Below, one piece after another: positions 30,184-48,619 of a DNA stretch of 64,000 nucleotides. Under the pieces are notes generated by a model. That model made no database searches. It was not told the DNA's origin and saw only the letters and a list, made by a program, of their open reading frames with translations. The DNA comes from Pseudomonadota bacterium (GTDB lineage Bacteria; Pseudomonadota; Alphaproteobacteria; Rhizobiales; Xanthobacteraceae): positions 12,681-76,680 of the forward strand of contig JAEXYA010000017.1 of the NCBI GenBank assembly GCA_023451825.1. Reading direction: 5' to 3'. Each line of letters starts with the position of its first letter. Position 1 is the first letter of the stretch. The translations under genes and the position numbers were made by a program.

Positions 30184-30481
30184 TCTGGCTTGGTGACCCG
30201 ACTGTCACATTCAAGACCAATGAAAAGTAGCGGAGCGCGTGCCGCTGCCGGAGTTAAGACTTGTTAAAACAGAGTTGAACGTCGACGCCATCGGGCCCTC
30301 CTGCGCCTGCGTCCCTCATTTTACATCGTTTAACGTTCGTCATGCGCGGCTTGACAGTAACGTCAGTGAGAAGACCGCACAGCCTCTCGGGTCATGAGAC
30401 TTTCAACACTGCACCACGCAGTGGGTCTGTTTTTAATTTGCCGTCGTTTGTGCGGATCGCATTGGCGCAGCCGGCGCCCGG

Positions 30482-31998: not shown

Positions 31999-32057
31999 CA
32001 GCATCGGGACGCTCCGCTGACCGTGAGGTTCGACATCATCATTCAAAGGAGACTATC

Positions 32058-32741: not shown

Positions 32742-32841
32742 ATCGAGCAAACATCGGTGACGACGGCGCCGGACGCGCCGTCATTGCTTTGGATCGACTA
32801 AACATCGCCAACCATATGCCCTTTGCAGCGGGAGACCTTGT

Positions 32842-33141
32842 ATGACGACTTCACCGTCAAAGATCACGGCTACCCTGACCGCTCGCCCAGGCAAGGCCGA
32901 AGCTTTGCGAGCACTGCTTATAGATATGGCACCACATTGCCGGGCCGAACCCGGCAATCTTCGATGGGATATCTGGAGCGATCCGGCCACCGAAGGGCGT
33001 TACGTGCTCGATGAGCTCTACCGCGACGCCAACGCTGTGGAAGCACATCGCAACTCACCACACTACCAGAATTATCTGACCGCAGTCCCCGCGCTGGCCG
33101 ATCGCACCGCGCTGGTGCTCGAACCGCTGGATATCGCTTAG
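32842..33141 (+). CDS. Antibiotic biosynthesis monooxygenase (ABM) domain protein
   Basis: 99 aa with a ferredoxin-like ABM pattern (...EPGNLRWDIWSD...YVLDELYRDANAVEAHRNSPHY). Confidence 0.75.
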   Translation: MTTSPSKITATLTARPGKAEALRALLIDMAPHCRAEPGNLRWDIWSDPATEGRYVLDELYRDANAVEAHRNSPHYQNYLTAVPALADRTALVLEPLDIA

Positions 33142-33184
33142 CGAAGCCGCTTCATGCCAGCCCACCGCCCCGCCGCGCGATCCT

Positions 33185-34579
33185 TTGAAAGAGACGATGA
33201 TGATTCATGTTGTGCAGGCCTTCGACCGCACGCCGATTGCGGAGATACCGACCGACGACGCGGCGGCACTCGAAACAAAGCTGACCACGGCGTATGCTCT
33301 TTTCCAGACTCGTTCCGCTTGGCTGCAACCGCACGATCGGATAGCGGTTCTTCACAGGCTCGCTGACCTGGTCGCCGCAGAGCGCGAGAGCTTCGCGACC
33401 CTGATCGCACGCGAAGGCGGAAAGCCATATATCGATGCATTGGTCGAAACAGACCGTGCGATCGACGGCATCAGAAATGCGGCGGACCTTCTGCGCACAC
33501 GGGGCGGCACAGAAATTCCCATGGGCCTGACCAGGGCCAGCGAGAACCGGCGTGCCTGGACCATCAAGGAGCCCATCGGGGTCGTGGCGGCCATATCGGC
33601 CTTCAATCACCCGCTCAACCTGGTTGTCCATCAGATCGCGCCGGCGATTGCGACCGGCTGCCCGATCATCGTCAAGCCGGCGATGGCCACGCCGCTCTGC
33701 TGTCTCAGGCTTGTCGCGCTTGTCCAGCAGGCAGGTTGTCCGCCGGATTGGGTCCAGACCCTCATCCCTGAGAATCGCGCGCTGTCGGAGGCGCTCGCAA
33801 CCGATCCCCGGATCGCCTTTCTGAGCTTCATCGGATCGGCTGCCGTCGGCTGGCGATTGCGGTCCTTGCTGGCGCCCGGGACAAGATGCGCCCTCGAACA
33901 TGGCGGCGTTGCACCCGTGATCATTGATGGCGGCACCGACCTTGATGCGATCGTCACACCCCTCGCCAAGGGCGGCTACTACCACGCCGGCCAAGTCTGC
34001 GTGTCCGTGCAGAGGATCTTTGTGCAGACGGCCATGAAGCAGGCGTTCATCGACCGCTTTGCCGCGCGGGTCCAGGAATTGCGCGTCGGAGATCCGGTTC
34101 TTGCCGATACCGAGGTTGGTCCGCTGATTACGCCGGACGAAGCGGACCGGGTCGAAGCGTGGATCAGCGAAGCCATCCAGGCCGGGGCGCAACTGATCGG
34201 CGGCGAGCGCCTGAGCCAAACGACCCTCCGGCCTGCGATCATCGTCGAACCGCCGAGCACGGCAAAGGTCTCGGCGCACGAGATATTCGGACCGGTGACC
34301 TGCGTCTACGGTTATGACGACATCGACGACGCCATCGCGGCGGCAAACGCGCTGCCTGTCGCCTTTCAAGCCAGCATTTTCACCCGCGACCTCGACATCG
34401 CTTTCCGGACAGCCGAACGGCTCGATGCATCCGCCGTGATGGTGAACGATCACACCGCGTTCCGCACCGACTGGATGCCGTTTGCTGGTCGTCGCACATC
34501 CGGTTACGGCATCGGCGGCATTCCATATACGGCCGCCGAGATGACTGCAGAAAAGATGATCGTCTTCAAGCACGGTTGA
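33185..34579 (+). CDS. NAD(P)-dependent aldehyde dehydrogenase
   Basis: 464 aa. AFNHPLN, LEHGG (the ELGG equivalent) and a catalytic Cys context HAGQVCVSVQR. Confidence 0.9.
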   Translation: MKETMMIHVVQAFDRTPIAEIPTDDAAALETKLTTAYALFQTRSAWLQPHDRIAVLHRLADLVAAERESFATLIAREGGKPYIDALVETDRAIDGIRNAADLLRTRGGTEIPMGLTRASENRRAWTIKEPIGVVAAISAFNHPLNLVVHQIAPAIATGCPIIVKPAMATPLCCLRLVALVQQAGCPPDWVQTLIPENRALSEALATDPRIAFLSFIGSAAVGWRLRSLLAPGTRCALEHGGVAPVIIDGGTDLDAIVTPLAKGGYYHAGQVCVSVQRIFVQTAMKQAFIDRFAARVQELRVGDPVLADTEVGPLITPDEADRVEAWISEAIQAGAQLIGGERLSQTTLRPAIIVEPPSTAKVSAHEIFGPVTCVYGYDDIDDAIAAANALPVAFQASIFTRDLDIAFRTAERLDASAVMVNDHTAFRTDWMPFAGRRTSGYGIGGIPYTAAEMTAEKMIVFKHG

Positions 34580-34602: not shown

Positions 34603-35232
34603 TCAGTTCGGACAGGGCTGTCCGGCTGCTCCCCACATCGCCATATCCTTGACGTGCTGTTCGAACGACCCCGGAGGCGTCGAGCGTCCTGCGCCGGGTT
34701 GCCACGCCCGTGGGATAAACCCACTCAACGATTCGTCGTGCCGCAAATGCTCGAGCAGCGCAACGGCATCGCGGCCGCCATTGCGCGCAGGGTTCTTCAA
34801 CTGCGCACAGATTTCAGCCCCGCTCTTGCCGTACCAGATGAAATCGACCGGAGCCAATTGCCAGTCGATCCCCGCACGCAGCGGCGCTGGCGCAGGATCG
34901 TTCGGCTGCGTCGAGGTCATATGGCAGGTCGAGCAGCGCAGCGTCTCGGCTCCGATCCGGCTCATTCCGGCATGGATGTACATGCCGTGATTTCGATCCT
35001 TTCCCTCTCCCGTCGGCGTCCAGATCGGTATCGCTTTCGCGTCGACATGACAGTTGGCGCATCGCGGATGCGTCACCACGGCTTCAATTCTCTTCCAGGC
35101 CTTCAATCCCTCGGATCGATTGACGCTTCCCGGCGGCAAAGCATCTTTGGCCGGCACTTTTGCCGCGACAATTCCGGTGATTGTCGCGACTGACGAAACA
35201 ACGACGGCAAGCGCCACGACGGTTCGCTTCAT
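34603..35232 (-). CDS. Secreted diheme c-type protein (two CXXCH), probable redox partner of the adjacent molybdoenzyme
   Basis: MKRTVVALAVVVSSVATITGIVAA signal peptide, with CANCH and CSTCH motifs. ATG at complement 35230-35232. The track ORF starts at a GTG at 35244. Confidence 0.7.
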   Translation of the reverse strand: MKRTVVALAVVVSSVATITGIVAAKVPAKDALPPGSVNRSEGLKAWKRIEAVVTHPRCANCHVDAKAIPIWTPTGEGKDRNHGMYIHAGMSRIGAETLRCSTCHMTSTQPNDPAPAPLRAGIDWQLAPVDFIWYGKSGAEICAQLKNPARNGGRDAVALLEHLRHDESLSGFIPRAWQPGAGRSTPPGSFEQHVKDMAMWGAAGQPCPN

Positions 35233-35240
35233 GACCACCC

Positions 35241-37496
35241 TCACACGAAATCGATGAATTTGTTGAAGGGCATCTCGCGGATACGCTGTCCCGTGGCCGC
35301 GAATATGGCATTGGCCAAGGCCGGCGCCGCGGGCGGCACCGGCGGTTCGCCGACGCCTCTCACCTTTGGATCATTCTCCAAGCCTCGCACCTCGATGACC
35401 GGGCACTGATACAGCCGCATCGCTTCGTGGTGATTGAAATTGGTTTGCTGAACCGCTCCCTTGGAGTAGGTCAACTCGCAATTCATCGCGTGGCCCAGTC
35501 CCCACACTACGCCGCCCTGGACCTGGTTCTCGAAATTGACCGGATCCATGACCTTTCCGACATCGACGGCAACCCAGACCTTATCAATCCGTATGCCGCC
35601 GCTTGTCATCGTCACCTCGACAACTTCTGCAGTCGGTGTGCCGAACGATTCGACGAAAGCAACGCCACGTCCTCGACCGTTGCCGAGCGGCCCTTTCCAG
35701 TTGGACATTTCACCAACGGCTTCAAGCACCTTCCGATAGGTTGGAACGGTGCACATCTCGATGCGCGCCTTTAGCGGATCAAGACCTGCTGCATGGATCA
35801 ACTCGTCGAGAAAACTTTCAGTGAAGAAGCCGGCGGTCGATGCGCCAACCGACCGCCAAGTCGTGCTGGGCGAGAGGCCTCGGGCCTCGTAGCTCGTCGA
35901 TCGAAAATGCGGGATGTCATAGTAGACGTTCCACAGGCAGGCGCCGAGCTGACCATCGGGCTCCTTCGTCGGCGCCCCCATGCGCTCCAGCAAGCCCTTG
36001 AAGGGCGCGGTCGATGCAGAGGAGAGCTCTGCAGCGACGATCTTCCCCTTTTCGACAACGCCTTTGTGCCGGGCCAAGGAAATCTGCCGTGGAATGTCCT
36101 GAAGAAAGTCTTCCTCCCGCGAAAAGGTCAGCTTAATCGGCGTCCCACGCATCTGATTGGCAATCTCTGCGAGGATCCCGATATTCTCAAATTCAAGACG
36201 ATGTCCAAAACTTCCGCCGGTCCATTGATTGTGGAATTTCACCTGCTCTGGCTTAAGGCCGATGGCCGCGGCCGCGATCGACTGCACGGCCTGAGGACTC
36301 TGGTGCCCGACCCAGATCTCCATGCCATCGCCAGACACGACGGCGACGCCGTTGAGAGGCTCCAATGGCTGATGCGCGACATAGGGCGCGCGATACTCGG
36401 CCTCAACAACCTTGCCTTGCTTCAGAGCCGTATCCACGTCTCCGACGTTGCGCCACTCTTTTCCTATGAACTCAGGCTTGAAAGAAGCTTCTAGGATTTT
36501 CCAATGCCCCGCCTGCTCGGCAGGATACTTTGACGGTGTCCATTTACATTCGATCGCTGCGACAGCGCGCATCGCGTACCAGCTATTCGTCGCCACGACG
36601 GCAACGCCGTTTTTGACTTTCAGTATCTTGCGGACGCCCGGCATCGCGCGCGCCTTGCGCGCGTCATAAGATAGCAGCGGCTGCCCCTTGTTCGGATTCA
36701 GTTTGACCGAGGCGTACATCATTCCATCGAGCTGTAGATCGATGCCGAACTTCAACTCACCCAGCGCTTTTGCCCGGACATCGAGTCGGGTCATCGGCTT
36801 TCCCAGTAACCGCCATGTCGACGGATCGCGGAGCTGGACATTCAGGACTGGTGGAATGCTGGCGGCCTCCGCCGACAGATCGACATAAGGAATTCTGGTC
36901 CCGTCCGGCAAAATCACATGACCGGACTGGGTGCGGATATCCGCGACAGCGACGCCGGAGCGTTTGGCCGCTGCAGCCTTCAACGTCTCGCGTGCCACGG
37001 CACCAGCGACGCGAAGCTTTTCATAAGTGTCAGGTACCGTGCTGGATCCGCCGGTCATTTGCAGGCCGGATTTCCTGAGGCTTTCATACACGGCTGCACG
37101 TGCCTGTTCGGCCGCGGGACTATGATCGGCCGCCACGAACGGCGCCAATTCGTCTGCGAAGCCAGTGTTGAAGTAGGCAGGACTCGGACCCGCAAATCGC
37201 ACGTCGAACTGACCGAGATCGAGGTCCATCTCCTCGGCGATCATGATCGGCTGAACTGATCCGACGCCCTGTCCGATATCGGCATGCTGGGCTATGAGTG
37301 TAATCCGCTCTGGACTGATCTCCACCCACGGATTGAACGATGCAGATCTTGGTCCGAGCCCAATGGCCAGGGGATTTGTGTCACCGGGCCGAAAGGCGTC
37401 CGCAGCGTTGCCGTAGGTGCCGAACGCAATGCCGCTCGCGGTTGCGGCAGCTCCTGCGATGAATGCGCGGCGCGATAGGCCATGAAGTGCCATCAT
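35241..37496 (-). CDS. Molybdopterin-binding subunit of an IorB/aldehyde-oxidoreductase-type enzyme, with a Tat signal
   Basis: About 750 aa. MMALHGLSRRAFIAGAAATASGIAFG is a twin-arginine signal. Xanthine dehydrogenase family b-hammerhead/Mo domains judged by overall similarity. Its start lies next to the stop of the 2Fe-2S subunit. Confidence 0.9.
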   Translation of the reverse strand: MMALHGLSRRAFIAGAAATASGIAFGTYGNAADAFRPGDTNPLAIGLGPRSASFNPWVEISPERITLIAQHADIGQGVGSVQPIMIAEEMDLDLGQFDVRFAGPSPAYFNTGFADELAPFVAADHSPAAEQARAAVYESLRKSGLQMTGGSSTVPDTYEKLRVAGAVARETLKAAAAKRSGVAVADIRTQSGHVILPDGTRIPYVDLSAEAASIPPVLNVQLRDPSTWRLLGKPMTRLDVRAKALGELKFGIDLQLDGMMYASVKLNPNKGQPLLSYDARKARAMPGVRKILKVKNGVAVVATNSWYAMRAVAAIECKWTPSKYPAEQAGHWKILEASFKPEFIGKEWRNVGDVDTALKQGKVVEAEYRAPYVAHQPLEPLNGVAVVSGDGMEIWVGHQSPQAVQSIAAAAIGLKPEQVKFHNQWTGGSFGHRLEFENIGILAEIANQMRGTPIKLTFSREEDFLQDIPRQISLARHKGVVEKGKIVAAELSSASTAPFKGLLERMGAPTKEPDGQLGACLWNVYYDIPHFRSTSYEARGLSPSTTWRSVGASTAGFFTESFLDELIHAAGLDPLKARIEMCTVPTYRKVLEAVGEMSNWKGPLGNGRGRGVAFVESFGTPTAEVVEVTMTSGGIRIDKVWVAVDVGKVMDPVNFENQVQGGVVWGLGHAMNCELTYSKGAVQQTNFNHHEAMRLYQCPVIEVRGLENDPKVRGVGEPPVPPAAPALANAIFAATGQRIREMPFNKFIDFV

Positions 37497-37497
37497 G

Positions 37498-37959
37498 TCA
37501 CTTCTCCGCCATCTTGCTGGCCGCGGCATGGATCGCCGCACGGATACGCGGATACGTCCCGCAACGACATAAATTACCGGACATGACCTCGTCGATCTGC
37601 GTGTCGGTCGGCTTGGGTATCAGCGCGAGCAGCGAGATCGCTTGCATGATCTGGCCGGTCTGGCAGTAGCCGCATTGCGGCACCTGATGCTCGATCCATG
37701 CCTGCACGACCGGATGCGTTTCCTTGGCGATGACACCTTCCAGCGTCACAACCGACTTACCGGTGGAATCTCCGACCCGCGCCTGGCAGGACCGCACCGC
37801 ATGTCCATCGATATGAACAGTACACGCGCCGCATTGCGCCACACCGCAACCGAATTTTGGACTTGTCAGACCCAGTTCATCACGCAGCGCCCAAAGCAAC
37901 GGCATTGTCGGATCAACATCGACCTTTGACGTCGTCCCATTGACCGTGAGTTCGATCAT
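37498..37959 (-). CDS. [2Fe-2S]-binding small subunit (IorA/CoxS-like)
   Basis: MIELTVNGT... with [11 protein letters not shown] and [11 protein letters not shown] cluster motifs. ATG at complement 37957-37959 preceded by gggagg. Confidence 0.9.
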
Positions 37960-38178
37960 GCGTGTTCCTCCCTCTGGGGACCAGTCGCGCATCGTCCGCG
38001 CGCATCCGACGGACGGATGCGCTACTGATCTATGTGCCGTCGAATTTCCGAAGCTTGGGAGAAACAGTACAGCAACGCGCTGCGATAGAACGGTTAAAAG
38101 GTGTTAAGCGCCTTACGTGCGCAGCTACAGGCAACCGCGTTCATGCGTGACGATGACGCTTCAGGTTTCTCGTGACAA

Positions 38179-41055
38179 TCAGGAGGCTGTCGATTGACGA
38201 TCAAGCAATTCGGCCATGATGAGTTCAGACGCTTGCTTAGCGATGTGACGGGCACGCGAGGCACCGGGCAAGGTCAGCTGCTCTCCTGTCCACGCGCCAC
38301 AGCTCTCGATCAGCGAACGCGCTTGAGACGCACCACCCGTTCGTAGCTCAAGCTCGGCCAATTCCACGGTGGCTTGGAGTTGCCAGAACCGGAAGTCCTT
38401 CGAGCCGAAGAGGCAAATTGCTGTCTCGTATCGCTGCCGTGCCGCTTCGACAGAACCATCGCCACCCTTTGCTGTCGCCAGGCGTGCCATCATATGTTCG
38501 TATCGTCCGACAATTCTGACGTCTTCGTCATTCATGCGGTAGCCATAGGCCCGCTTCAATGCCGCCTCGGCCCCTGAGAGATCGCCGCACATCAATCGGA
38601 TCGTGGTGAGATCGAGAAGGATATGAGGGATGATCGTGATCCGCTGCTGAATCAGAGGGTCATGATCAATCGCCCGGGAGAACGCGTGCTCGGCCGCCAA
38701 CAGATCATCGATCGTTGCGCTGCCGACCTTGAACTCCTCACGCACCAGGAGGGACCGGAACACCGTGAGAAATCCTGTCCACGGCTGATACAACGCTGAC
38801 AGTTCCGCCAACTTCCGCAAATGTATCCGAGCACGCTCGATCTGTCCGGCCTCCAATTCGCACCAAATCAACCCCCGCGTAAGAATGTAAAAGCTCGCGA
38901 TGGTGTCTGCTCGCTCTTCGGCCTGCACCAGCAACCGGTCAAAATGTTCAAAGGCCGCTTCGAACTGTCCCATGTGATACTTGGCACGTGCCAACATGAC
39001 ATCACTGAGGGTGGTCATTCCATGACCGAAATACAACGCAAAGTCGCCGGGGAAGTCCGGCCACTTTGTGATGAATGCGTCGAGCTTTCGCCGCGACGCC
39101 GCGATACTCGAGTGTTCGAAATCATCATAGGCGGACAACAACGTCGGCAACCAGCGCACCACCGGATTGGACGATCTGGAAGCAACCGCAGTCAGTTCTG
39201 CAAGATGGACCGAGATCGGACGGCGCTTCCGAAGCAAGTCATGGATGAGCCCGAACAGTGCCCTGACTTGAAGAAACTCATCCTCGGTCGCCCGAGCTGC
39301 TTGCCACGCCTCGACATACAATGCTCCATCGTGCTGACGGCCCGAGGTGACAATCTCGAAGCCTGAACATGCGACGGCGACAAGGACGTTTGCTCTGACC
39401 CGCGCATCCGCGCCCGGATCAATTTCGGTCCGCTTGAACGCCATGTAGCGATATTTCTCGCCTTGAACGAGGGAGCCCAGTGCGAGCCACATCCGCTCCG
39501 CCGCGAGCGTCAGGCGCACGCCCAGTTCGGGACGCATAGCAAACGCCCAATCCAGAGCGGCGTGAACATCGTCGCTGATGGAGCGCAGCCTGGCGCGAAG
39601 CGACGACGGATCACTGGCGTTCCAATCGAGTGTTTCAAGGCATCGAAGGAAATAGTCGGCATGTCGCTCCTGAGACGACTGCCTTTCTTGTTCCGCTTCC
39701 GCTGTCAGGAGCACATAAGCGCGTGTCGTTTCCAGCAAGCGATATTCGATCGGCGCGACTTGCCGGCTCACATTCAACAGCGACTTGTTCACCAACTCGA
39801 CGATGATCCCGTGTACACGATCGGTGGTAACGCCAGTCCTGCTTCCGATCTCCACGGCGGCGTCCAGCAGAAATGGTCCAGCGAAGACGGCAAGCCGGGA
39901 CAAGACAACTTGCTCATCCCGCGACAACAGGCTGTAGCTCCAATCTATCGTCGCGGCCATCGACCGCTGACGTGGCACCGCGTTTCGACGCCCCACCGTC
40001 AGCAGCGAGAAGCGTCTGTCCAGCCCCCGAAAAACCTCATCGATACCGAGAACGCTGACCATGGACGCAGCCAGTTCGATCGCCAGTGGTATACCATCCA
40101 GCTTTCGACAGATTGCGATCACCGTAACAGCATTTCCGTCATCCAACTGAAAGGCCGGCGTCTGATACGAAACGATCCGCATGAAAAGCTGCACGGACAC
40201 GAAGCGTGCTGCGCTCTCGGCTGTCATCAGCACACCCGCCGGAGGCACCTCCAGGGGATCGAGACGCCACACCAGTTCTCCGGCAACCCTGAGCGACTCG
40301 CGCGATGTTGTCAGGACGTTCACGCTTCCCAATTCGCCGACGATGCGTTCAACGAGACTGGCGACAAGGTCGGCAATGTGCTCGCAGTTATCAAGCACGA
40401 GAAGAACGTGCTTGCTCTGTAGCGCAAGCAAAACTTGCTCGGCCGCAGCGCCCATCTCGACCGGAAGGTCCAGGGTGCCTATCACCGCGGCATGCAGTTG
40501 CACTTCAGTCGTCGCCCGCGCCAGATCGACGAAGCTATAACCATCGGTAAATTTCGCGCTGGCTTTTTCGGCGACCGCCGCCGCAACGGTTGTCTTTCCG
40601 ATGCCTCCCGCCCCGAGAATGGTGACGAGCCTGTTCGAGGCGACGCTCCGAAGTATACCGTCGATCTCTGCATCTCGGCCAAGCGGCGCGACCGATAATT
40701 TCGCGGCACTGTATGAATTCCGCTTGGCGCTGGCGGCATGCGTGGATACTTCCCGAAGGCGTCCCGTGAAACGATACCCGAGCGATGCCTCCGTTCGGAT
40801 CAAAACCCCCTCGTGGCCCAGCGCCTTTCTCAAGCCGGCGATCTGAACACGTAAATTTCGCTCGTCCACTTCAACGCCGGGCCATGCCCGCTGGCAGAGC
40901 TGCGCTTTGGTGACTAGTTCTCCGCGTTTCTCGATCAATGCCCCCAGCAGAGCGCGGGCACGCGAACCAAGTTGAACGCGGTCCTCTCCATGCCGCAACA
41001 GCCCATTCAGCTCATCAAATCGAAATGATCCGAACGCGGCTTGTGAACGCGACAT
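38179..41055 (-). CDS. STAND-class regulator 1: OmpR/PhoB-type winged helix + NB-ARC-like P-loop NTPase + helical TPR-like sensor (958 aa)
   Basis: N-terminus FGSFRFD...NLRVQIAGLRKALG...GYRF. Walker A GAGGIGKTT (complement of 40588-40614). Walker B LLVLDNCEH. RQRSMAATIDWSYSLL motif. About 550 aa helical C-terminal region. Confidence 0.85.
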   Translation of the reverse strand: MSRSQAAFGSFRFDELNGLLRHGEDRVQLGSRARALLGALIEKRGELVTKAQLCQRAWPGVEVDERNLRVQIAGLRKALGHEGVLIRTEASLGYRFTGRLREVSTHAASAKRNSYSAAKLSVAPLGRDAEIDGILRSVASNRLVTILGAGGIGKTTVAAAVAEKASAKFTDGYSFVDLARATTEVQLHAAVIGTLDLPVEMGAAAEQVLLALQSKHVLLVLDNCEHIADLVASLVERIVGELGSVNVLTTSRESLRVAGELVWRLDPLEVPPAGVLMTAESAARFVSVQLFMRIVSYQTPAFQLDDGNAVTVIAICRKLDGIPLAIELAASMVSVLGIDEVFRGLDRRFSLLTVGRRNAVPRQRSMAATIDWSYSLLSRDEQVVLSRLAVFAGPFLLDAAVEIGSRTGVTTDRVHGIIVELVNKSLLNVSRQVAPIEYRLLETTRAYVLLTAEAEQERQSSQERHADYFLRCLETLDWNASDPSSLRARLRSISDDVHAALDWAFAMRPELGVRLTLAAERMWLALGSLVQGEKYRYMAFKRTEIDPGADARVRANVLVAVACSGFEIVTSGRQHDGALYVEAWQAARATEDEFLQVRALFGLIHDLLRKRRPISVHLAELTAVASRSSNPVVRWLPTLLSAYDDFEHSSIAASRRKLDAFITKWPDFPGDFALYFGHGMTTLSDVMLARAKYHMGQFEAAFEHFDRLLVQAEERADTIASFYILTRGLIWCELEAGQIERARIHLRKLAELSALYQPWTGFLTVFRSLLVREEFKVGSATIDDLLAAEHAFSRAIDHDPLIQQRITIIPHILLDLTTIRLMCGDLSGAEAALKRAYGYRMNDEDVRIVGRYEHMMARLATAKGGDGSVEAARQRYETAICLFGSKDFRFWQLQATVELAELELRTGGASQARSLIESCGAWTGEQLTLPGASRARHIAKQASELIMAELLDRQSTAS

Positions 41056-41525
41056 CTCTCGTTCCTCGTAAAATTCAACGATTGGCCGCCGCGATCAATA
41101 CGAAGCAGCAACCAACATGCTCTTTCGAATTTCAACATGCCAACACGCGGTACTGCCCCCAGCGGTTCGCAAGCTTCGAATTTTCGCTTCCGATTATTCT
41201 CCTCAAATACAACCGAACTGTCGATCAGGACGGCAACTCGTCGATCCGAAGGTCGCGCGCTCTGATGGAAGATAACGCGTAGCTGCACTCCGCAATTTGC
41301 CTTGAATATGCCTCGCGGTGTGGAAAATCCTGGCTGCTTTACATTTTTTTACATCCTGCCATCGGGGACATCGTTCTCAGCCGACAAAGACCTCCCATAG
41401 GGATACCTTCATGGGAGGCCCCGCTTGTGGCGGTGCGGAAGGTAAAATAAAGTAAAACGTGCTGTTGGTCTCCTGATCCAGACGATGCAAAGCCGCAATC
41501 GCCTTAAAATCAACTGGTCCGTCCG

Positions 41526-44336
41526 ATGGTAAACCGTCAAGTTTGCTTCGGACCTTTTCGGTTCGATCCCAATTCAAGAGTGCTGTGGGACGGCAACGAG
41601 CGCACGCGTATCGGCGCGCGGGCCATTGCGATCCTCGATCTTCTCATGAAGGATCCCGGCAGCCCCGTTGCCCAGATGGACCTGATCCAGGCGGCCTGGC
41701 CCGGCCTCCACGTTGATCGCAGCAATCTGCGGGTTCAGATCTATGCCCTCCGGAAAGTGTTGAGAGACCAGGGTAAGTTCATTCAACCTGGACCATCGCA
41801 CACCTATTGTTTTGTCGGGGACGCGACGTTTCTCGCGCCATCGGACGCCTCATCCGCCTACCACGGCAGTCCATCCATTCCAGCCCCTTCTGTGTCTCCG
41901 GTCGGACGCGATCGTGTTATTTCAAGCATCCGGGCGTTATGCGAGATCGACCGTTTGGTCACCATTCTCGGATCCGGAGGCATCGGGAAGACGACGGTCG
42001 CGCTGCAGTTCGCGCATGAGCAACAGCATCAGTACCGGGCCGGCGCATGTTTCGTCGATTTGGGACGACTATCCGACCCCAATGCAGTGAACGCGATGGT
42101 GGCCAGCGCCGCCGGGTTCTCCGTCACCGAATGGCCGAGTACCGAATATGTCGCTCAGGCGCTGAGCAACAAGCACATGCTCTTGGTTCTCGACTGCTGC
42201 GAACACGTTCTCGAATCGGTTTCGGCGCTCGTCGAAACTCTCCTGAGAACTGCGCCGTCCATCAGGATCCTGCTCACGACACGACAGCCAACCGGTATTG
42301 CAGGTGAACAGCTATTCGTGCTGGAGCCTCTGCCAATTCCTCCGCCAATGACGGAGAGCTCGGCCGGGCCGGGCCTCGCGACATATGCCTCGGTACAGTT
42401 GCTGATCGATGGCGTGAAACGACGCGGTGCGCAACTCGAGATCACCGATGATACCTCGACTTACATCTCAGAGATCTGCAGGCGCGCTGAGGGCGTCCCG
42501 CTGACGATCGAGCTGACGGCATCGATGGTCGCAGTCCTCGGCTTGCATCAAGTTGCCGAAGGTCTTGCCGATGGGACGCAACTGCTGAGTATCGACCGAC
42601 GGAGCACCGTTCCCCGACAACGATCTCTCTCCGCGACGATCGAATGGAGCTACAATCTCCTCACCGACGAAGAACGCTATGCCATCCAGTGTCTGTCTTG
42701 TTTTGCTGGCTGGTTCTCGATCGTATCGGGCGTCGCCGTGGTGGAAGGCCCCAAATTGGACGCCGAGGCCGCACGTCATGCAATCCTCGGCCTCGCGCAC
42801 AAATCTCTGCTCGCCTCGGACACAATCCACGCCCCGTCGAAACTGAGATTGCTCGATACCACGCGGGCATTTGTCCTGAAGACGCCCGACCCGGTGGGCG
42901 ACAGATCCCGCGCCAGCGAACGCCACGCTCGGTACCTGATCACGCAGCTTGATCTCATTGAATGGGATACATTCGACCCGCACCAATACGCAGGCCTTAT
43001 TGACGAGATACGCATCGCGCTCGACTGGGCTTTCGCGAACTCCCCACATTTAGGCGTAGCGCTTGTTTTGTCGGCCGAGCGGCTCTGGCTCGAACTGACG
43101 TCGTTATTTCACGGCGCTCAGGATATCTTCAGAGCACTCCAACATGTCGACCTTGACCCACGCATCGACAAGGCGTCCCGTGCGCGGCTGCTGGTCTCGC
43201 TTGCCTCGGCACAGGCTTACCTTCCAGGCCTCGATGACGCCTCTCTATATGAGCGCGCCTGGCGTGCCGCACGCGACGCAAACGATCATTTCTTGCAATT
43301 GCGCGCCCTTTACGGGATCATTCAAAACCTGCTCCTCACGCGGCGACCAGCGGACTTCCATCTCGACGCATTCGCTACGGCATCCGAACGCTCCAGCCAT
43401 CCGTCGACACGTCATCTTCATCAACGCATGTCGGCCTTCAATGCCTTTGAGGGCTCCGAGCTCCGGCTGGCGCGCACGATGTTCGAGGCGTTTCTGAGCG
43501 ACGCGCAATCAATTCCCAAAGAACTTTCGCTCTACTTTGGCGGCATTGGGCCCAAGGCCTCTGCGAAAGTTGGATTGGCGCTCACGCAGTATTATCTTGG
43601 CTATTGTGACGACGCCCAACATGTTTTGGATTCTGCCGTCGAAGAGGCGAAGCTCCTCCGGCACGCGACCACCTCATATTTCGTGTTTGCTCAGGGCGCC
43701 ATCTGGGTGAAAATCCATTCGGGCGATTTTGCGTGCGCTCATGCCTATCTGGACGAACTCGAACATCTTGCAGAGAGCCACCTTCCGTGGCGAACTCTTG
43801 TCGATGGTTTTCGAGGGCTTATCGCTCGTTACGAACACAACGACCCGGAGACCGCATGCCGCCTGTTGGGAACCTGCCTCGATCAACCTTACATCATCAA
43901 GACCGGCTCTCTCCACCCGATCCTGTGGGTTGAGCTGGCAGATGCGCGGCGATTGCGCGGTGATCTCGCTGGCGCCGAAGATGCGTTGAACCGCTCGAAA
44001 GCTCAGCTTCGTGGCGACATCGATGTTCGACTGCTCGGGAAACATCATCCCGTTCTCGCTCAAGTGCTGCTTGCACGCGGCCGCGCCGAAGACATCGAGC
44101 GCGCGAGAATGCTGCTCAGGGAAGCGCGAGAACTCAGCATTCTGAAAGAATTCTATCTTTACGAATGCGAGGCCACCATCATCCTTGCCCAACTGGAAAC
44201 TCATCAAGGGAACGCCGGCGAAGCTCGCCACCTGCTGCAGCAGCTGGCGTCGCGCTTCGAAGACAGGCAGAGCGTGCCGGGCTTCGACCACGCTCAGACA
44301 CTCTTGAAGGCGATTGACGCCGGCGCTCCCTCATAG
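41526..44336 (+). CDS. STAND-class regulator 2 (936 aa), paralog of 38179..41055
   Basis: FGPFRFD...NLRVQIYALRKVL. Walker A GSGGIGKTT. Walker B LLVLDCCEH. RQRSLSATIEWSYNLL. The wing motif is TYCF instead of GYRF. Confidence 0.85.
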   Translation: MVNRQVCFGPFRFDPNSRVLWDGNERTRIGARAIAILDLLMKDPGSPVAQMDLIQAAWPGLHVDRSNLRVQIYALRKVLRDQGKFIQPGPSHTYCFVGDATFLAPSDASSAYHGSPSIPAPSVSPVGRDRVISSIRALCEIDRLVTILGSGGIGKTTVALQFAHEQQHQYRAGACFVDLGRLSDPNAVNAMVASAAGFSVTEWPSTEYVAQALSNKHMLLVLDCCEHVLESVSALVETLLRTAPSIRILLTTRQPTGIAGEQLFVLEPLPIPPPMTESSAGPGLATYASVQLLIDGVKRRGAQLEITDDTSTYISEICRRAEGVPLTIELTASMVAVLGLHQVAEGLADGTQLLSIDRRSTVPRQRSLSATIEWSYNLLTDEERYAIQCLSCFAGWFSIVSGVAVVEGPKLDAEAARHAILGLAHKSLLASDTIHAPSKLRLLDTTRAFVLKTPDPVGDRSRASERHARYLITQLDLIEWDTFDPHQYAGLIDEIRIALDWAFANSPHLGVALVLSAERLWLELTSLFHGAQDIFRALQHVDLDPRIDKASRARLLVSLASAQAYLPGLDDASLYERAWRAARDANDHFLQLRALYGIIQNLLLTRRPADFHLDAFATASERSSHPSTRHLHQRMSAFNAFEGSELRLARTMFEAFLSDAQSIPKELSLYFGGIGPKASAKVGLALTQYYLGYCDDAQHVLDSAVEEAKLLRHATTSYFVFAQGAIWVKIHSGDFACAHAYLDELEHLAESHLPWRTLVDGFRGLIARYEHNDPETACRLLGTCLDQPYIIKTGSLHPILWVELADARRLRGDLAGAEDALNRSKAQLRGDIDVRLLGKHHPVLAQVLLARGRAEDIERARMLLREARELSILKEFYLYECEATIILAQLETHQGNAGEARHLLQQLASRFEDRQSVPGFDHAQTLLKAIDAGAPS

Positions 44337-44401
44337 CTTTTCATACCGGCATCAGACGGACTGCTCTGTAGCGGACGCAATCTGACCCATACGACATATG
44401 C

Positions 44402-47260
44402 CTATTCACGTTCGGTTGCGAGCGAACGCAACACGCGCCCAGCCAATCTGACATCGGTCGAGGGGGCGTGAGCATCAACCCTGCGATAGACTGGTTCGAG
44501 GAGCGTCAACCCTTCAGCCCCGCGCCCGACATGTCCGAGCATACGCGCCAGAGCCGTCGTGGAGCTCAGCTCGAATGTCAGGGCACCCTGTCGCCTGGCA
44601 CAGGCGATTGCGGCTCTGAGCATTGCCTCAGCATCAACAATCTTCTCCTCGCGCCATAACAGAAGCCCCTTCACGCGCAGGATTTCGGCATCATACCAAT
44701 GCTCGCTCTGTCGTTCTGCGTGTTCGCTGGCTTCGGCGAGCGACTTTATCGCAAGCTCGGGACGCCCGAATTTCAATGCCGCTTCTGCAATGACCGTTAG
44801 ATACATCGGCACCCTGACAAGGAACCCGTTCCGAACAATCCGTCGCGCTTCACGATGCATGATATCGAGCGACGCTTCATCGTCGTCGAGGCACCCGACT
44901 GCGGCCTGGTAGAATTGACAGACAGGATCCCAGATGGCGAGATCGCGCAGCTCCACACCACGTTTCAGCGTGAGGATCAGTCTGCGAGCGCGCTCGATAT
45001 CTCCAGATCGCATCGTGAGAGGGATCGCAGCCTGCGCAAGCGCGTTAGCTTCGGATACCATATGCTCCAAGGCAGACGCTCGATCCAGGGCTTGCTGCGT
45101 TATACGTAATGCACCCGCGTGGTCGCCACGTATCCACATCGGAAATGCAAGTGCGACCCGCAGCCCGACAAGACGATCGATCTGAAACCTGGACATGCGG
45201 GTCGGCGCCGCATCGTCACCAAAATTTCCGACAAGGACTTCAAGGCCCTTCTGCGCACCCGTAATATCGCCGGTGTAGAATTGGGTGATATGCTTGAACC
45301 GCTTTCCGTCCGGCAACGCCGATATCTCACCGCGCAGCTCGGCAGTATCCTCGAATTGTTCGAGCGTAGCGAGAGCTTGGAGATGACGGCCAGAAAAGGT
45401 CTGAAGAACGGCATGGCCCCACAGCGCCCGCAGTTGAAATTCAGCGTCGTCTATCTCGACCGCCAGGCGATAGCATTCGCGCCAGGCATCATCGACCTCG
45501 GCACCGAGATGATCGGAAAAATTCAAGCCATTGCCATATGACGCCAGCAGTTTCATCCTCAGGCGCAGATCGTGAGGGAGCTCCGCCTCTTCAAATTGGA
45601 GGGCGCGTTCGACGCGGGATCGGCTCTCTCCGACGGTGGAGAGTTCATCCCAAAGAGGAATGGCCGCTGCAGTCAGGCGAACTCCCAATTCCGGATCACC
45701 GCCATCGCCGAACAACCATTCGATCGCCTTGCGGAGGTCATTCACCCGCTTGCCGTAAGACGCGGTCCAGTCCCGCCTTGCTCGCCACTGCCACTCAGCC
45801 TCTGCAGCTTCGAAAACCCTGAGCAGGTATCGCGAGAAACGCATCAGGACAGCATACTGCTCACCCTCATTCTTGAGCGCCCCGCCAGCAAAGCCACGCA
45901 TGATGTCAAGCAAGCGGTATCGCAATTCACCGCCTTGATAAATTTGCGATACCATCGATTTGGAGACGAGGCTTTGTGCAAGCGAAGTGACGGTCTCGAT
46001 GGCCCCTCCGTCGTCCGAGGCAATTCCCACAATGTCTTCGAGCGAGAAATGTCCCGTGAAAACTGAAAGCTCCCGGAACAACCTCGCTTCGCTCCTCGAC
46101 AAGATCCGATAGCTCCACTCCAGCGTGGCCAGCAAGGTCTGATGCCGGCGCACACGTCCTTCTCGCGTGACGTTTAATGGCTCCAAATCGACGTCGAGCA
46201 AACGGAGGAGGCTTTGGGCATTGGATCCGTCGAAGTGGGCAACTGCGAGTTCGATCGCAAGAGCAATTCCATCAAGGCGTCGACAGATGGCTGCGACCGC
46301 GCTTGCATCGACATCTTCAAATCTATAACCGTTCGCTTCGAAAGCCCTCCTGACGAACAATCTGACGGCAGAGTAATCAAGCGCCGAAACTGAATCGACC
46401 TGATCAGCTTCGCTTGGAAACTCGAGTGCCGGCAGGCGGTACACCGACTCATGTCGCGCCCGCAGCGGCTCTCTGCTCGTGGCCAGGATCACCAGACTTG
46501 GAACAACCGACCGCAGATGGTCTGCGATCAGGGACGCAGAACTCAACACGTGCTCACAGTTATCAAGTACAAGAAGAGTATGCTTGTGCCGGATGGCTTC
46601 GATAGCTTCTGCCAAGACGTTCGTGGTGTTCGTAACGCTTCCGAGCGCGGCTGCGACGACCGGAACGACCTGCTGAGCCTCATCGATCACGGCCAAGTCG
46701 GCAAATCGTACACCGTCCCGAAACGATGCCTTAAGCTCAAGCGCGACGGCCACTGCCAAGGTCGTTTTACCGACACCTGCGGGACCGACAACCGTAACAA
46801 AACGCTCGTCGGCTAACATCGCAGTCAACTCCGAAACCTGCTGATCGCGACCGACAAGATCGACGATCATCGGCATCGCCCCCGGTGGATACTCCTTCGG
46901 GTCCGCATCGATACCTGTGTCGTCCGCGGAGATCTCTACACGCGCAACGAATCGATATCCCCGTCCCTGTACGGTCGCGATGTAGGGGAGGCCCGAAGGA
47001 AGCGCAGGCAACACCTTGCGCAATGCAGAGATCGCGACCTTAAGGTTGGTCGATTTCATCGGACTTTCCGGCCACGCGAATGCGATCAGCTCGTCTTTGC
47101 TGACAACCTCGCCCGACTTCGAGACGAGGAGCTCCAAAAGGTCCAGGGATCGAGATCCGGGTGTGAGATACACATTCTTGTGCCTGAGCATCTGCCGGTG
47201 GGGTACGAACTCGACCTCTCCGAAACGATAGCGTTTACGCTCGATCATTTCGTCCCCCAC
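44402..47260 (-). CDS. STAND-class regulator 3 (952 aa), more distant paralog
   Basis: YRFGEVEF...NLKVAISALRKVL...GYRF. Walker A GPAGVGKTT. Walker B LLVLDNCEH. RHQTLLATLEWSYRIL. Long helical C-terminus. Confidence 0.85.
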   Translation of the reverse strand: MGDEMIERKRYRFGEVEFVPHRQMLRHKNVYLTPGSRSLDLLELLVSKSGEVVSKDELIAFAWPESPMKSTNLKVAISALRKVLPALPSGLPYIATVQGRGYRFVARVEISADDTGIDADPKEYPPGAMPMIVDLVGRDQQVSELTAMLADERFVTVVGPAGVGKTTLAVAVALELKASFRDGVRFADLAVIDEAQQVVPVVAAALGSVTNTTNVLAEAIEAIRHKHTLLVLDNCEHVLSSASLIADHLRSVVPSLVILATSREPLRARHESVYRLPALEFPSEADQVDSVSALDYSAVRLFVRRAFEANGYRFEDVDASAVAAICRRLDGIALAIELAVAHFDGSNAQSLLRLLDVDLEPLNVTREGRVRRHQTLLATLEWSYRILSRSEARLFRELSVFTGHFSLEDIVGIASDDGGAIETVTSLAQSLVSKSMVSQIYQGGELRYRLLDIMRGFAGGALKNEGEQYAVLMRFSRYLLRVFEAAEAEWQWRARRDWTASYGKRVNDLRKAIEWLFGDGGDPELGVRLTAAAIPLWDELSTVGESRSRVERALQFEEAELPHDLRLRMKLLASYGNGLNFSDHLGAEVDDAWRECYRLAVEIDDAEFQLRALWGHAVLQTFSGRHLQALATLEQFEDTAELRGEISALPDGKRFKHITQFYTGDITGAQKGLEVLVGNFGDDAAPTRMSRFQIDRLVGLRVALAFPMWIRGDHAGALRITQQALDRASALEHMVSEANALAQAAIPLTMRSGDIERARRLILTLKRGVELRDLAIWDPVCQFYQAAVGCLDDDEASLDIMHREARRIVRNGFLVRVPMYLTVIAEAALKFGRPELAIKSLAEASEHAERQSEHWYDAEILRVKGLLLWREEKIVDAEAMLRAAIACARRQGALTFELSSTTALARMLGHVGRGAEGLTLLEPVYRRVDAHAPSTDVRLAGRVLRSLATERE

Positions 47261-47287
47261 TAGATAAGGCTGGCTACTGTCTCAAAT

Positions 47288-47878
47288 TCAGTGCGCTCGC
47301 TCCTGCGCGACAGCCCTTCCGCTTGGACGCGCAGCCTTGCCCGCCGAGCCAATTCCCCCGTTCGATAGTCGCCAGGCGTTCGGTGAAGTCCCTGTCGAAG
47401 CTCGGAACGCCCGACAGAAATGGGCTTGATCGGAGAATCCGCAATCGATGGCGATCTCGACCAACCTCATGTCGGTCAGCTGCATCAATCTTTCTGCCCG
47501 CCCAATTCTGCACGCGATCAGATACGCTCTCGGCGGCTGCCCGACACTTGCTTTGAATGCATTGCAGAAGTATCCGCTGCTGAGCCCAACGTTCCTCGCG
47601 ATCTGCGAGACACGAAGCGGCCGATGTAGATTTTCTTCGATATAGCGCAGCGCATGGTCGATTTGACGGCTACGAGGTCCCTTGTGCGTCGAAGGTGCAA
47701 TCGCCGCTTTCGATGAACCGGCAAGTATAAGAATGGCTTCGTCCAGGCGTAACTTGGCCAAGTCCCGATCGGGATCGATCGCGCGACGCGCATCAAGCAG
47801 AAGCTGCGCAATCAAGGCGTCATCGGATATGCCCTGCCTTTCGAGCTCCGTCGGTTTAGGCGCGGATTTCCGGTTCAT
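47288..47878 (-). CDS. AraC-family transcriptional regulator (short, 196 aa)
   Basis: C-terminal double HTH: LRVSQIARNVGLSSGYFCNAFK...VEIAIDCGFSDQAHFCRAFR. Its stop is 27 nt before the start of STAND regulator 3 on the same strand. Confidence 0.85.
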   Translation of the reverse strand: MNRKSAPKPTELERQGISDDALIAQLLLDARRAIDPDRDLAKLRLDEAILILAGSSKAAIAPSTHKGPRSRQIDHALRYIEENLHRPLRVSQIARNVGLSSGYFCNAFKASVGQPPRAYLIACRIGRAERLMQLTDMRLVEIAIDCGFSDQAHFCRAFRASTGTSPNAWRLSNGGIGSAGKAARPSGRAVAQERAH

Positions 47879-48619
47879 ACTCGTTCCCGCTCATTCTGCT
47901 GTCCAAGGATCGATTTTGCAGGCGGCCGAATGAAATTGATCGAGCAACGTGCGCTATTGCCTGCCGCTCACCTGGAGAAAAGCGCTCTCTCAAAACCTCC
48001 AAGCGTCGTCGTGTGCGCTTCAAGCAGAGAATAATCGCACTTCCGGATGATCTGCGGTTAAGAGTCGTAAAAAGATGCCAATGAAGCAGCGAGCGCCCGT
48101 TTGAAAAACGTGCCGTCGGCGAACTTTTGTTAAATCAACTTGCCGCAGGTCGACATTGAGATGGTTGCTTCACCAGGCGGCGACACGGGTCAGGCCAATA
48201 CCTCTGCCCCTGGAATGATGCGGCACCGCTCGCCGCAGACTTGAGCGATATGAGAACGTCGCGATCGTATCTGGCGGTCCGCACCGGTCGCGGAAAAGGG
48301 TCTCGGGCCACGCCTGGGCCTGGGCGCGTCCTGATCGGGCCGGCCTGCGAAACGGCAATCGGCGTTGCGGACCGTTTCGCAGAGCGCTCACGATAAAGCG
48401 ACGAAGTTGAATATGCCCGTCGAAGATTTTTGCTCGAGTGCGGGCCTGCCAGCAGTACGGCGATGAGGACTACCGAGCGAAGCTGCTCTTCCGCCCCGAA
48501 CACGCACGCCGCTTCTTCCGCCTCAAGCCGAAGGTGGCGCAACGACTAATCGACGAGGGTAGGATGAAGGGGTGAATTCCTCATAGGACTACTCACCCAT
48601 CCAACGCAACAACTTCGGA

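Follow-up and report, generated by a model that had tools for sequence, protein, structure and literature searches.

Three neighbouring genes for large ATPase-type regulators, here called R1, R2 and R3, lie in a 64,000-nucleotide stretch of a Xanthobacteraceae genome (Pseudomonadota bacterium, assembly GCA_023451825.1, contig JAEXYA010000017.1, positions 12,681 to 76,680 of the forward strand). This whole stretch is referred to as the window, and all coordinates are those of the window unless a different locus is named. The trio consists of R1 (38179-41055, minus strand, 958 aa), R2 (41526-44336, plus strand, 936 aa) and R3 (44402-47260, minus strand, 952 aa), and next to R3 stands a gene for a short AraC-type regulator (47288-47878, minus strand, 196 aa). 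R1, R2 and R3 are most likely cytoplasmic, one-component, ATP-switch regulators that control the gene island in which they are embedded. In its specific form, to which we give a probability of roughly 0.6, this reading makes them ligand-gated STAND activators in the style of PhoB and AfsR that share a single regulon, their own island.

The observations that carry this reading are a common architecture and fold, gene neighbourhoods that are conserved beside relatives in other genomes, and a TTTACC direct repeat together with its placement at the promoters of the island. A sequence-only reading of the same DNA had seen in the trio an NLR-like sensor array with a DNA-binding output. The trio itself, its architecture and its age withstand analysis, whereas its exceptionality, its status as an orphan and the analogy with defence do not. 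The feature is real and was correctly described, and it is less exceptional than proposed. What the present analysis adds is a testable prediction of a regulon and of a binding site, and evidence for birth-and-death evolution of the NLR kind in a non-immune setting.

Architecture and fold of the three regulators

The list of open reading frames (ORFs) reproduces exactly the coordinates first reported for the AraC gene and for the three ORFs of 958, 936 and 952 aa in minus, plus, minus order. The start of R3 is ambiguous: the GTG at 47260 gives 952 aa, and the database copy begins four codons later and has 948 aa. The proposed order of an N-terminal winged helix-turn-helix (wHTH), a STAND ATPase and a TPR-like tail is borne out by Pfam, by an AlphaFold2 model and by Foldseek alike. 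Trans_reg_C matches the N-terminus of R1 (E 1e-12), R2 (E 1.3e-7) and R3 (E 5e-14), and each of the three has NB-ARC, AAA_22, AAA_16 or nSTAND matches at about residues 125-375. The profile search for an NB-ARC/STAND core therefore found one, with NB-ARC above the cut-off in R1 (E 3e-8) and R2, and with AAA_22 and nSTAND1/3 matches in R3. The C-terminal TPR matches are weak in all three proteins, as with TPR_12 in R3 and with TPR_MalT in R2 (25 bits against a cut-off of 45).

The sequence motifs that had been quoted for the trio hold as well. G-x-G-G-[IV]-GKTT, LLVLD[NC]CEH and R..AT..WSY are invariant in a three-way alignment, and the majority of the trio motifs are invariant or near-invariant across 48 homologs. 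Within the Walker A and Walker B motifs, G148, G151, G153, K154, T155 and D222 are invariant in these 48 homologs. Walker A, Walker B and the conserved NOD motifs are intact in the full-length R1, R2 and R3.

A model of R1 was built with AlphaFold2 on the 48-sequence alignment (mean predicted local distance difference test, pLDDT, 87.4; predicted template modelling score, pTM, 0.65). It comprises the wHTH (residues 1-103), a short disordered linker (104-125, with a pLDDT of about 53), a nucleotide-binding domain (NBD, about 126-270), a helical domain and a second winged-helix domain (HD and WHD, about 271-452), and the TPR-like helical sensor (455-957). An alpha/beta NTPase, the helical domain and the second winged-helix domain thus extend to about residue 450, and some 500 residues of paired helices follow, a smaller helical part than the approximately 550 aa originally estimated. 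Foldseek against the PDB places the STAND-TPR protein 6mfv first (E 2e-10), followed by Apaf-1, the wheat resistosome, Roq1 and CED-4, with E values for these five structures from 2e-10 to 1e-5; the helical tail of R1 matches TPR subunits of the APC/C. Because the R1 model matches 6mfv, Apaf-1, the plant resistosomes and CED-4, the STAND core is confirmed at the level of the predicted structure. By sequence, the best match among solved structures is AfsR (8k60, NOD region, E 2e-4), and the winged helices of PhoB, KdpE and ToxR come next.

The MHD-type position is distinctive. Residues 438-445 of R1 (about 39721-39744, minus strand) read YRLL[E/D] and align to YRFHD of AfsR. The His of the His-Asp switch is replaced by Leu, and in the 48 homologs L441 is near-invariant and the acidic residue is kept.

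A direct repeat at the island promoters

When the upstream regions of HbpS-like genes from three other genomes were aligned, a direct repeat, TTTACC-TTTT-TTTACC-TCC, became apparent. In the spacer between R1 and R2 this pattern is matched exactly at 41338-41356 (plus strand), and a copy with three mismatches stands at 41438-41456 (minus strand); 0.01 matches are expected by chance. A matrix was derived solely from ten sites outside the window and was used to scan both strands of the 64-kb window. Its top five matches are promoters of the island, each directed at its downstream gene. The first (24.7 bits), TTTACA-N4-TTTACA-TCC at 41336-41358 (plus strand), is directed at R2 and is a predicted binding site for the wHTH, at the -35 position. 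The second (22.8 bits), TTTACT-N4-TTTACC at 41436-41458 (minus strand), is directed at R1, and the third (19.5 bits), TTTACG-N4-TTAACC at 48051-48073 (minus strand), is directed at the AraC gene and R3. This third site lies about 175 bp upstream of the AraC start codon and has a -10-like hexamer, GATTAT, about 19 bp downstream. The fourth (15.3 bits), TTTACA-N4-TTAACG at 30318-30340 (plus strand), is directed at an operon of detoxification-type enzymes described below, and the fifth (11.1 bits), TTTAAC-N4-TTAACT at 30247-30269 (minus strand), is directed at a hydrolase gene and lies 64 bp upstream of its start. Four sites in the window score at least 15.3 bits, compared with two in 30 Markov-simulated windows.

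The repeat recurs in other genomes. Fetched loci around family members carry L-numbers here, and L091 is that of Tardiphaga sp. 42S5. In the orthologous operons of L081, L022 and L089 the motif stands at the equivalent place. A scan of the 1.62 Mb of fetched loci for near-matches (up to four mismatches) found all but one of them (L050) in spacers beside regulators of the R1/R2/R3 clades or beside their neighbour operons. Sites that did not enter the matrix occur upstream of a tautomerase gene (L001), of glyoxalase-ABM genes (L083, L086), and of DJ-1-ABM genes and a cupin gene (L088). In Tardiphaga sp. 42S5 the matrix matches a face-to-face pair between the R1 and R2 orthologs (L091 9647-9669, plus strand, and 9900-9922, minus strand), and it also has matches before iorA and before glyoxalase-ABM; a match in Tardiphaga 839 precedes AraC-iorAB. 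Most sites have a -10-like hexamer (GCTAnn, GATAnn or GATTAT) 18-20 bp downstream of the proximal repeat, which is why the proximal repeat is placed at -35. The proteins linked to the motif have in common the recognition helix NL[KR]V[QNA]I; other branches of the family have SLRVH, NLQVH or TLHVH.

Alternatively, the repeat could itself be a promoter or UP-like element whose reader is a different factor, for instance a second regulator or an alternative sigma factor. The STAND proteins would then act at other genomic sites, as the global regulator AfsR does, and would adjoin detoxification genes by hitch-hiking with accessory islands. The proximal copy at -35 does resemble TTGACA, the spacer is T-rich like an UP element, and about 58% of actinomycete AfsR-like proteins have no association with a gene cluster (bioRxiv 10.64898/2026.09.02.748808). 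Against this, no gene other than a regulator of the R1/R2/R3 clades is present at every motif-bearing locus, and the roughly 1.3 Mb of off-clade loci contain few matches. The tandem hexamer with a 10-bp period is, moreover, the typical form of site for an OmpR/PhoB-type winged helix (for SARPs, see PMC10936776). We regard the alternative as distinctly unlikely. Both clades, that of R1 and R2 and that of R3, are found in other genomes together with the TTTACC repeat. It is therefore probable that the members of the trio read common sites and that the three proteins are different sensor inputs to one regulon.

The R1 and R2 sites face each other across a gap of 77 bp, and the corresponding sites in Tardiphaga sp. 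42S5 do so across about 230 bp. With this arrangement the implied R1 and R2 leaders would overlap in antisense and cross each other's promoter, and the face-to-face sites may cause mutual transcriptional interference. Between them lies an inverted repeat, CCTCCCAT-N12-ATGGGAGG, at 41391-41418; as RNA its fold is not significantly better than that of shuffled sequence (z = -1.7). Generic scans for sigma-70 promoters and for terminators gave chance-level results only.

Conserved neighbourhoods and predicted targets

According to the sequence-only reading the trio had no obvious target operon. The conserved neighbourhoods and the repeat together single out five places: the operon at 30482-34579, the hydrolase gene at 29413-30183, the iorAB-cytochrome c genes and the regulators' own promoters. 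The predicted target operon, on the plus strand, encodes an HbpS/GlcG-like protein (30482-30946), a zinc-dependent alcohol dehydrogenase (Zn-ADH, 30943-31998), a DJ-1/PfpI protein (32058-32741), a 99-aa ABM protein (32842-33141) and an aldehyde dehydrogenase (33185-34579); except for the ABM ORF these names rest on Pfam. The hydrolase, also a predicted target, is an alpha/beta-hydrolase on the minus strand (Abhydrolase_6, E 2.6e-22) with an N-terminus that by eye is hydrophobic and signal-peptide-like. The nearest NCBIfam models for the operon enzymes are the aldehyde reductase Ahr/AdhP, the glyoxalase III HchA and lactaldehyde dehydrogenase, all below cut-off, and NCBIfam gives no equivalog-level names for these enzymes, so any substrate is a guess. 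Judged from its annotation, the enzyme set suggests a regulon for reactive aldehydes, 2-oxoaldehydes or quinones. The regulons of AdhR and MhqR in Bacillus subtilis are similar in kind, with Zn-ADH, DJ-1/PfpI, glyoxalase/dioxygenase-type enzymes and a carboxylesterase; these two regulators are small MerR- and MarR-type proteins unrelated to STAND.

The same kinds of gene, which in the window occupy the island around the trio, adjoin close relatives of all three regulators in other genomes. The R1-like regulator of R. leguminosarum has HbpS-like, Zn-ADH, GFA, DJ-1, ABM, aldehyde dehydrogenase and hydrolase genes next to it. Close relatives in B. japonicum and on two metagenome contigs adjoin ABM and a glyoxalase-fold gene, and others adjoin an old-yellow-enzyme reductase (OYE) and an HbpS-like gene (L084) or a hydrolase and a tautomerase (L085). 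In L001 the neighbours are a tautomerase, an aldo-keto reductase, an OYE and an aldehyde dehydrogenase. The R3-like regulator of L088 adjoins ABM, DJ-1, flavoprotein and GFA genes, and that of M. caraganae has HbpS-like, IorA, IorB and 210-aa protein genes on one side and ABM, hydrolase and DJ-1 genes on the other. Tardiphaga 839 combines ABM, glyoxalase, aldo-keto reductase and hydrolase genes with AraC-IorAB-cytochrome c. The HbpS/ADH/DJ-1/aldehyde dehydrogenase operon of Rhizobium sp. F40D2 is orthologous to that of the window (phmmer E 1e-64 to 1e-238) and is transcribed in the divergent direction from an R3-like regulator. Homologs of the hydrolase (phmmer E 1e-34 to 1e-68) lie beside family members, or no more than about 5 kb away, in L005, L010, L015, L017, L049 and L085.

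Downstream of R1 and on its strand (34603-37992) are genes for an IorA-like 2Fe-2S subunit (37498-37992, minus strand, Pfam Fer2_2), an IorB-like molybdopterin subunit (35241-37541, minus strand, Pfam MoCoBD_1/2) and a protein with two CxxCH motifs, CANCH and CSTCH (34603-35244, minus strand). The iorAB-cytochrome c genes also occur beside family members in L089, L092 and L013. IorAB and the AraC gene had been named as the adjacent candidate targets of the trio, and as partners they are plausible: IorAB-cytochrome c is 86-92% conserved beside the Tardiphaga regulators, with a motif site there. Upstream of iorA in the window is a weak candidate site, TTAACA-N4-TTAACC at 38087-38109 (minus strand).

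The AraC-type regulator consists of the helix-turn-helix (HTH) domain only (Pfam HTH_18, E 2.5e-22, and HTH_AraC). Its gene precedes R3 on the minus strand, 27 bp away, and the two are probably co-transcribed. Short AraC genes (about 150-215 aa, mostly HTH only) directly adjoin family members in several unrelated genomes, as at L012 12800-13441, L072 6349-6852, L021 5047-5541, L029 3907-4500 and L091 13342-13803.

These neighbourhoods also bear on whether the three proteins could be separate pathway regulators without a common regulon. In that case R1 would serve iorAB-cytochrome c, which would oxidise an N-heterocycle or an aromatic aldehyde, and two further pathways would be served by R2 and by R3 together with AraC; each regulator would recognise an operator and a substrate of its own, as MalT does with maltotriose. 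R1 is indeed directly upstream of iorAB-cytochrome c on the same strand, IorAB adjoins family members in L013, L089, L091 and L092, the recognition helices differ slightly (RVQI in R1 and R2, KVAI in R3), and the sensors differ strongly. However, members of the R1/R2 clade and of the R3 clade occur on their own in other genomes beside the TTTACC repeat and the same kinds of gene, a single orthologous operon accompanies an R1-like protein in one Rhizobium but an R3-like protein in another, and all three regulator promoters of the window carry the same repeat. Separate pathways are thus an unlikely explanation, and a shared regulon is the one that we prefer.

Comparison with known systems and a proposed mechanism

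The closest known relatives in design are AfsR and the other large SARPs, which likewise begin with an OmpR-type winged helix and continue with an NB-ARC-type NOD and TPR repeats; AfsR also has the Walker B form of the trio, in which a small residue comes after LDN. The binding sites of AfsR are direct repeats overlapping the promoter, and at its afs box two SARP protomers sit side by side and contact region 4 of sigma (PMC10936776). As in the present family, there are several paralogs per genome, and the His of the F/Y-HD motif is conserved in 3,853 actinomycete AfsR-like proteins (bioRxiv 10.64898/2026.09.02.748808). The trio departs from this group in several respects. It has no BTAD match (Pfam, E <= 0.01), and a 22-residue linker (104-125) takes the place of the BTA domain of about 150 aa. 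The NCBIfam equivalog model for AfsR scores 34-39 bits against a cut-off of 1430, and the switch His is replaced by Leu (YRLL[E/D]). The two copies of the candidate repeat are 10 bp apart in period and the proximal one lies at -35; in SARPs the period is 11 bp, and 8 bp separate the 3' repeat from the -10. The host bacteria belong to the Proteobacteria, and detoxification enzymes take the place of antibiotic gene clusters as neighbours. The trio probably works like AfsR or MalT, yet it is no SARP.

MalT and PH0952 (6mfv) share with the trio the order of NOD, arm and helical-repeat sensor. In the accounts given for STAND-TPR proteins, the sensor keeps the protein in a closed, ADP-bound form, and an inducer brings about opening, ATP binding and multimerisation (PMC6468293, PMC4381067). 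MalT differs by its C-terminal LuxR-type HTH, the trio having an N-terminal OmpR-type wHTH and no GerE match in Pfam; PH0952 is without an assigned DNA-binding output, and for both proteins the likeness to the trio is one of fold only. The Trans_reg_C winged helix links the trio to PhoB and OmpR. Sites for OmpR/PhoB-type proteins are tandem direct repeats that are one helical turn apart and overlap the -35, as the pho boxes do. The trio, unlike PhoB and OmpR, has no Response_reg match (Pfam), begins with the wHTH at residue 1 and has no partner kinase, and its activation would come through the STAND switch instead of through phosphorylation.

Within the Proteobacteria the combination of winged helix, ATPase and TPR had been noticed before, as shown by a 2012 in silico prediction for PSPPH_2539 from the T3SS-2 (type III secretion) cluster of Pseudomonas syringae pv. 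phaseolicola, with an N-terminal winged helix, a COG3903 ATPase and C-terminal TPR (PMC3574062). Its setting in a type III secretion cluster sets that protein apart from R1-R3. Literature searches for a characterised proteobacterial member found only this in silico note; one apparent match, PMC13101487, was rejected, as 'TpR' there denotes trimethoprim resistance.

In the mechanism that we propose, the C-terminal TPR-like sensor would hold the nucleotide-binding core closed in the resting state. A small-molecule or protein signal would bind the sensor and release the lock, and the released core would exchange its nucleotide and self-associate. Two OmpR-type winged helices would then be brought side by side onto the TTTACC-N4-T(T/A)ACC direct repeat with its 10-bp period, the promoter-proximal copy occupying the -35, and RNA polymerase would be recruited as it is by PhoB or AfsR. 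Binding of the motif by the trio, activation, the workings of the switch and the nature of the signal are the steps that we infer. The predicted targets are the face-to-face promoters of R1 and R2 and that of AraC-R3, which would amount to positive autoregulation, together with the HbpS-like/Zn-ADH/DJ-1/ABM/aldehyde dehydrogenase operon and the neighbouring alpha/beta-hydrolase gene; iorAB-cytochrome c is a probable target.

Several points weigh against this reading. The His of the His-Asp switch of AfsR and the NLRs is absent, so the switch may work differently, and the nucleotide lock may, on the evidence of this motif, differ from that of AfsR. The site assigned to R1 is about 380 bp from the R1 start codon, which implies a long leader. 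The hydrolase site is weak, its 11.1 bits falling within the best scores of simulated sequence, and the iorA site is weaker still (below 8 bits); it aligns with a 15.0-bit site upstream of iorA in Tardiphaga (L091 4660-4682, minus strand), which is weak evidence because the entire spacer is conserved between both genomes. The motif could belong to another factor, or could be the promoter element itself, and activation and repression are not to be told apart from sequence. A census of neighbours in the wider family (142 near and 97 far genes) gave no robust enrichment, with Abhydrolase_6 in 8/142 near versus 2/97 far genes and AraC in 6/142 versus 3/97; gene association is therefore claimed only for the R1/R2 and R3 clades. 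Finally, the literature searched yielded no binding, expression or ligand data for any family member.

Divergence, arrays and truncated copies

R1 and R2 are 37% identical, and R3, which falls in a clade apart from both, is 28-29% identical to either. The best non-self homologs of R1 are 44-47% identical to it. R2 has its best homolog in Tardiphaga sp. 42S5 (57%) and is about 50% identical to proteins of Bradyrhizobium and other Tardiphaga, and homologs of R3 at 49-53% are found in Mesorhizobium, Rhizobium, Novosphingobium and Ancylobacter. Because each regulator is closer to proteins of foreign genomes (45-57%) than to its neighbours, the trio is not a recent tandem duplication, in line with the strong divergence, greatest for R3, that had been read from the sequences. 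Divergence is strongest in the C-terminal third, at the sensor end (19-28% identity, versus 31-42% for the wHTH).

The family is large. At E <= 1e-10 there are at least 7875 matches for R1 and at least 6285 for R3, most of them of 930-990 aa with the same domain order, and most carry PF00486 and PF25872. The trio belongs to the catalogued, uncharacterised COG3710 + COG3903 family (Trans_reg_C + HTH_77), whose members appear as 'predicted ATPase/DNA-binding winged helix-turn-helix (wHTH) protein' at JGI and as 'ATP-binding protein' at NCBI. A genome scan served as a sample of the family and not as an ortholog search. Among the matches listed, relatives of R2 are 27-38% identical, members with the full wHTH come from Alpha- and Betaproteobacteria, and the NOD-TPR part alone, with other N-termini, occurs in Actinomycetota, Chloroflexota and others. 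A tblastn search found 138 plasmid or chromid records at E < 1e-50, mostly from Rhizobium, Sinorhizobium and Paraburkholderia.

The array itself had been considered unusual, a view that the sampled loci do not support. When the trio profile was run over the ORFs of the fetched loci, 18 loci had two or more matching ORFs within 10 kb. With frameshift pieces and weak fragments set aside, a second separate family gene was present within this range in about 12 of 79 randomly sampled genome-scan loci. Larger arrays, with three to five genes, were seen in Rhizobium sp. SG_E_25_P2, in Massilia luteola (4-5 members), in Acidisphaera sp. S103 and on the soil contig L001; with the pairs included, arrays in other genomes have 2-5 paralogs. 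The members of one array fall in different clades.

In Tardiphaga sp. 42S5 the R1|R2|R3-AraC order is repeated together with its orientation, so the adjacency of the trio is inherited and is no accident of one strain, the outcome that would have told against the array. Identities to the window are 92.5% for cytochrome c, 90% for IorB and 86% for IorA (all on the minus strand), 80% for the alpha/beta-hydrolase and 44.5% for the short AraC protein, which has the same position as in the window. The R1 ortholog (56% over aa 1-480) has only 492 aa, stops just past the winged-helix domain and lacks the sensor; the R2 ortholog (57%) is full length; and R3 is reduced to a remnant of 116 aa with the wHTH only (61% over aa 8-113). 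The interval from IorA to the R1 ortholog is occupied by ABM, glyoxalase and periplasmic-binding-protein genes. The flanks of the Tardiphaga island differ from those of the window and include phage-like genes. Between the two genomes the regulators have diverged faster than the adjacent enzymes (56-61% versus 80-92% identity).

Truncated copies stand beside full-length family members in further loci. They include L091 8028-9506 and 12854-13204 (the Tardiphaga copies), L092 12963-14264, L084 8484-9806 and 14576-16114, L085 547-1110 and L007 7841-9409, and they take various forms: wHTH only, wHTH with NBD, or NOD without wHTH. Such copies may be decaying, or may be sensor-less forms that are always on or dominant. 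The array of the window could on this pattern be a set of redundant, partly decaying birth-and-death paralogs, one or more of them non-functional: two of the three Tardiphaga orthologs are truncated (492 and 116 aa), truncated copies accompany full-length ones in L007, L084, L085 and L092, and the regulators diverge fast. The three window copies, on the other hand, are of full length and have kept intact Walker A, Walker B and NOD motifs, and each has its own motif-bearing promoter. Decay of this trio is very unlikely in our view.

The accessory island and the question of defence

The trio lies within an accessory island of about 21 kb with low GC content at third codon positions (GC3), at about 27.5-48.1 kb. 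GC3 is 0.63-0.66 for the trio and 0.62-0.74 (mean 0.68) for the genes at 27545-47878, compared with 0.72-0.85 (mean 0.79) for the flanking genes, which upholds the by-eye impression of accessory DNA. The flanking core genes encode an L,D-transpeptidase, DUF882, gapR, DUF1244, DUF1036 and pyruvate kinase. At the left end of the island are genes for a SLAC1/TehA-type transporter (27545-28525, minus strand) and an isochorismatase-family hydrolase (28522-29289, minus strand), both assigned by Pfam and both with a GC3 of 0.67, compared with 0.79 for DUF882, the core gene next to them. The borders showed no tRNA, integrase or flanking direct repeats, and the repeats detected in this search are only coding motifs common to the paralogs. 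The spacer of about 740 bp between AraC and gapR (47879-48619) contains no convincing ORF and holds the motif site at 48051-48073; the remainder of it may be a scar of the island border.

This setting, with features of the family, raises the question of an anti-phage array of the NLR/Avs kind, whose DNA-binding output might, for example, shut down host or phage transcription. Avs and bNACHT systems share with the trio the STAND NTPase, the C-terminal repeat sensor, the clustering of fast-evolving paralogs and the location in accessory DNA. The fast divergence of the regulators relative to the neighbouring enzymes, the frequent truncated copies, the low-GC3 island and the phage-like genes that abut the Tardiphaga copy would all suit such a role. 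In contrast to those systems, the trio has no nuclease, protease, SIR2, TIR or other toxic effector domain, its N-terminus being a Trans_reg_C winged helix, and its context is metabolic: about 12 related loci have genes for small oxidoreductases and hydrolases as neighbours instead of defence genes, and the common cis-repeat lies upstream of metabolic genes. The likeness to Avs that had been drawn dissolves into P-loop-level noise in PADLOC (short P-loop stretches of mad8, E 8e-5 to 8e-4, and no match for R2), and an Avs5 structure ranks only 40th in the fold search. With P-loop similarity alone and no defence neighbours, a defence role was rejected, and we hold an anti-phage array to be scarcely credible.

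Three further observations concern the surroundings. In Rhizobium leguminosarum (L082 1-748 and 4971-9736), the R1-like regulator has a gene for a 920-aa TIR + WD40 protein and an imuB/dnaE2 mutagenesis cassette at a distance of a few kb; these have no bearing on the trio, but they mark that neighbourhood as accessory and conflict-rich. In the window, a terC RNA motif (Rfam RF03067) at 19736-19791 (plus strand; 51.3 bits, above the gathering score) overlaps the start of the ORF at 19773-20453 (plus strand). Long shadow ORFs run opposite real genes, such as one of 473 aa at 33152-34573 (minus strand), antisense to the aldehyde dehydrogenase and without a Pfam match; because of the high GC content these are taken as artefacts and not as genes.

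Discussion

A broader interpretation is tentative, and we consider it possible and rather doubtful. In it, three fast-diverging NLR-like factors with different TPR sensors would converge, through one DNA specificity, on a common regulon for detoxification of aldehydes or quinones, possibly in the form of mixed oligomers. On this view the family would be a proteobacterial branch related to NLRs that lacks both BTA and the switch His, evolves by birth and death and senses chemicals instead of pathogens.

Switches of the STAND/NLR type are best known from immunity and cell death. To our knowledge, few bacterial transcription factors of the STAND class have been studied, among them MalT, AfsR and GutR. 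Soil and rhizosphere Proteobacteria encode thousands of members of the present family, and many of their genomes have several. New here are a predicted motif, a small predicted regulon and the comparison of three sensors on one apparent DNA site. If the reading is false, these genes are ordinary uncharacterised regulators on an accessory island. If it is true, a large unstudied class of chemical sensors would be opened, and the clustering, fast divergence and truncation typical of NLRs would occur outside immunity as well.

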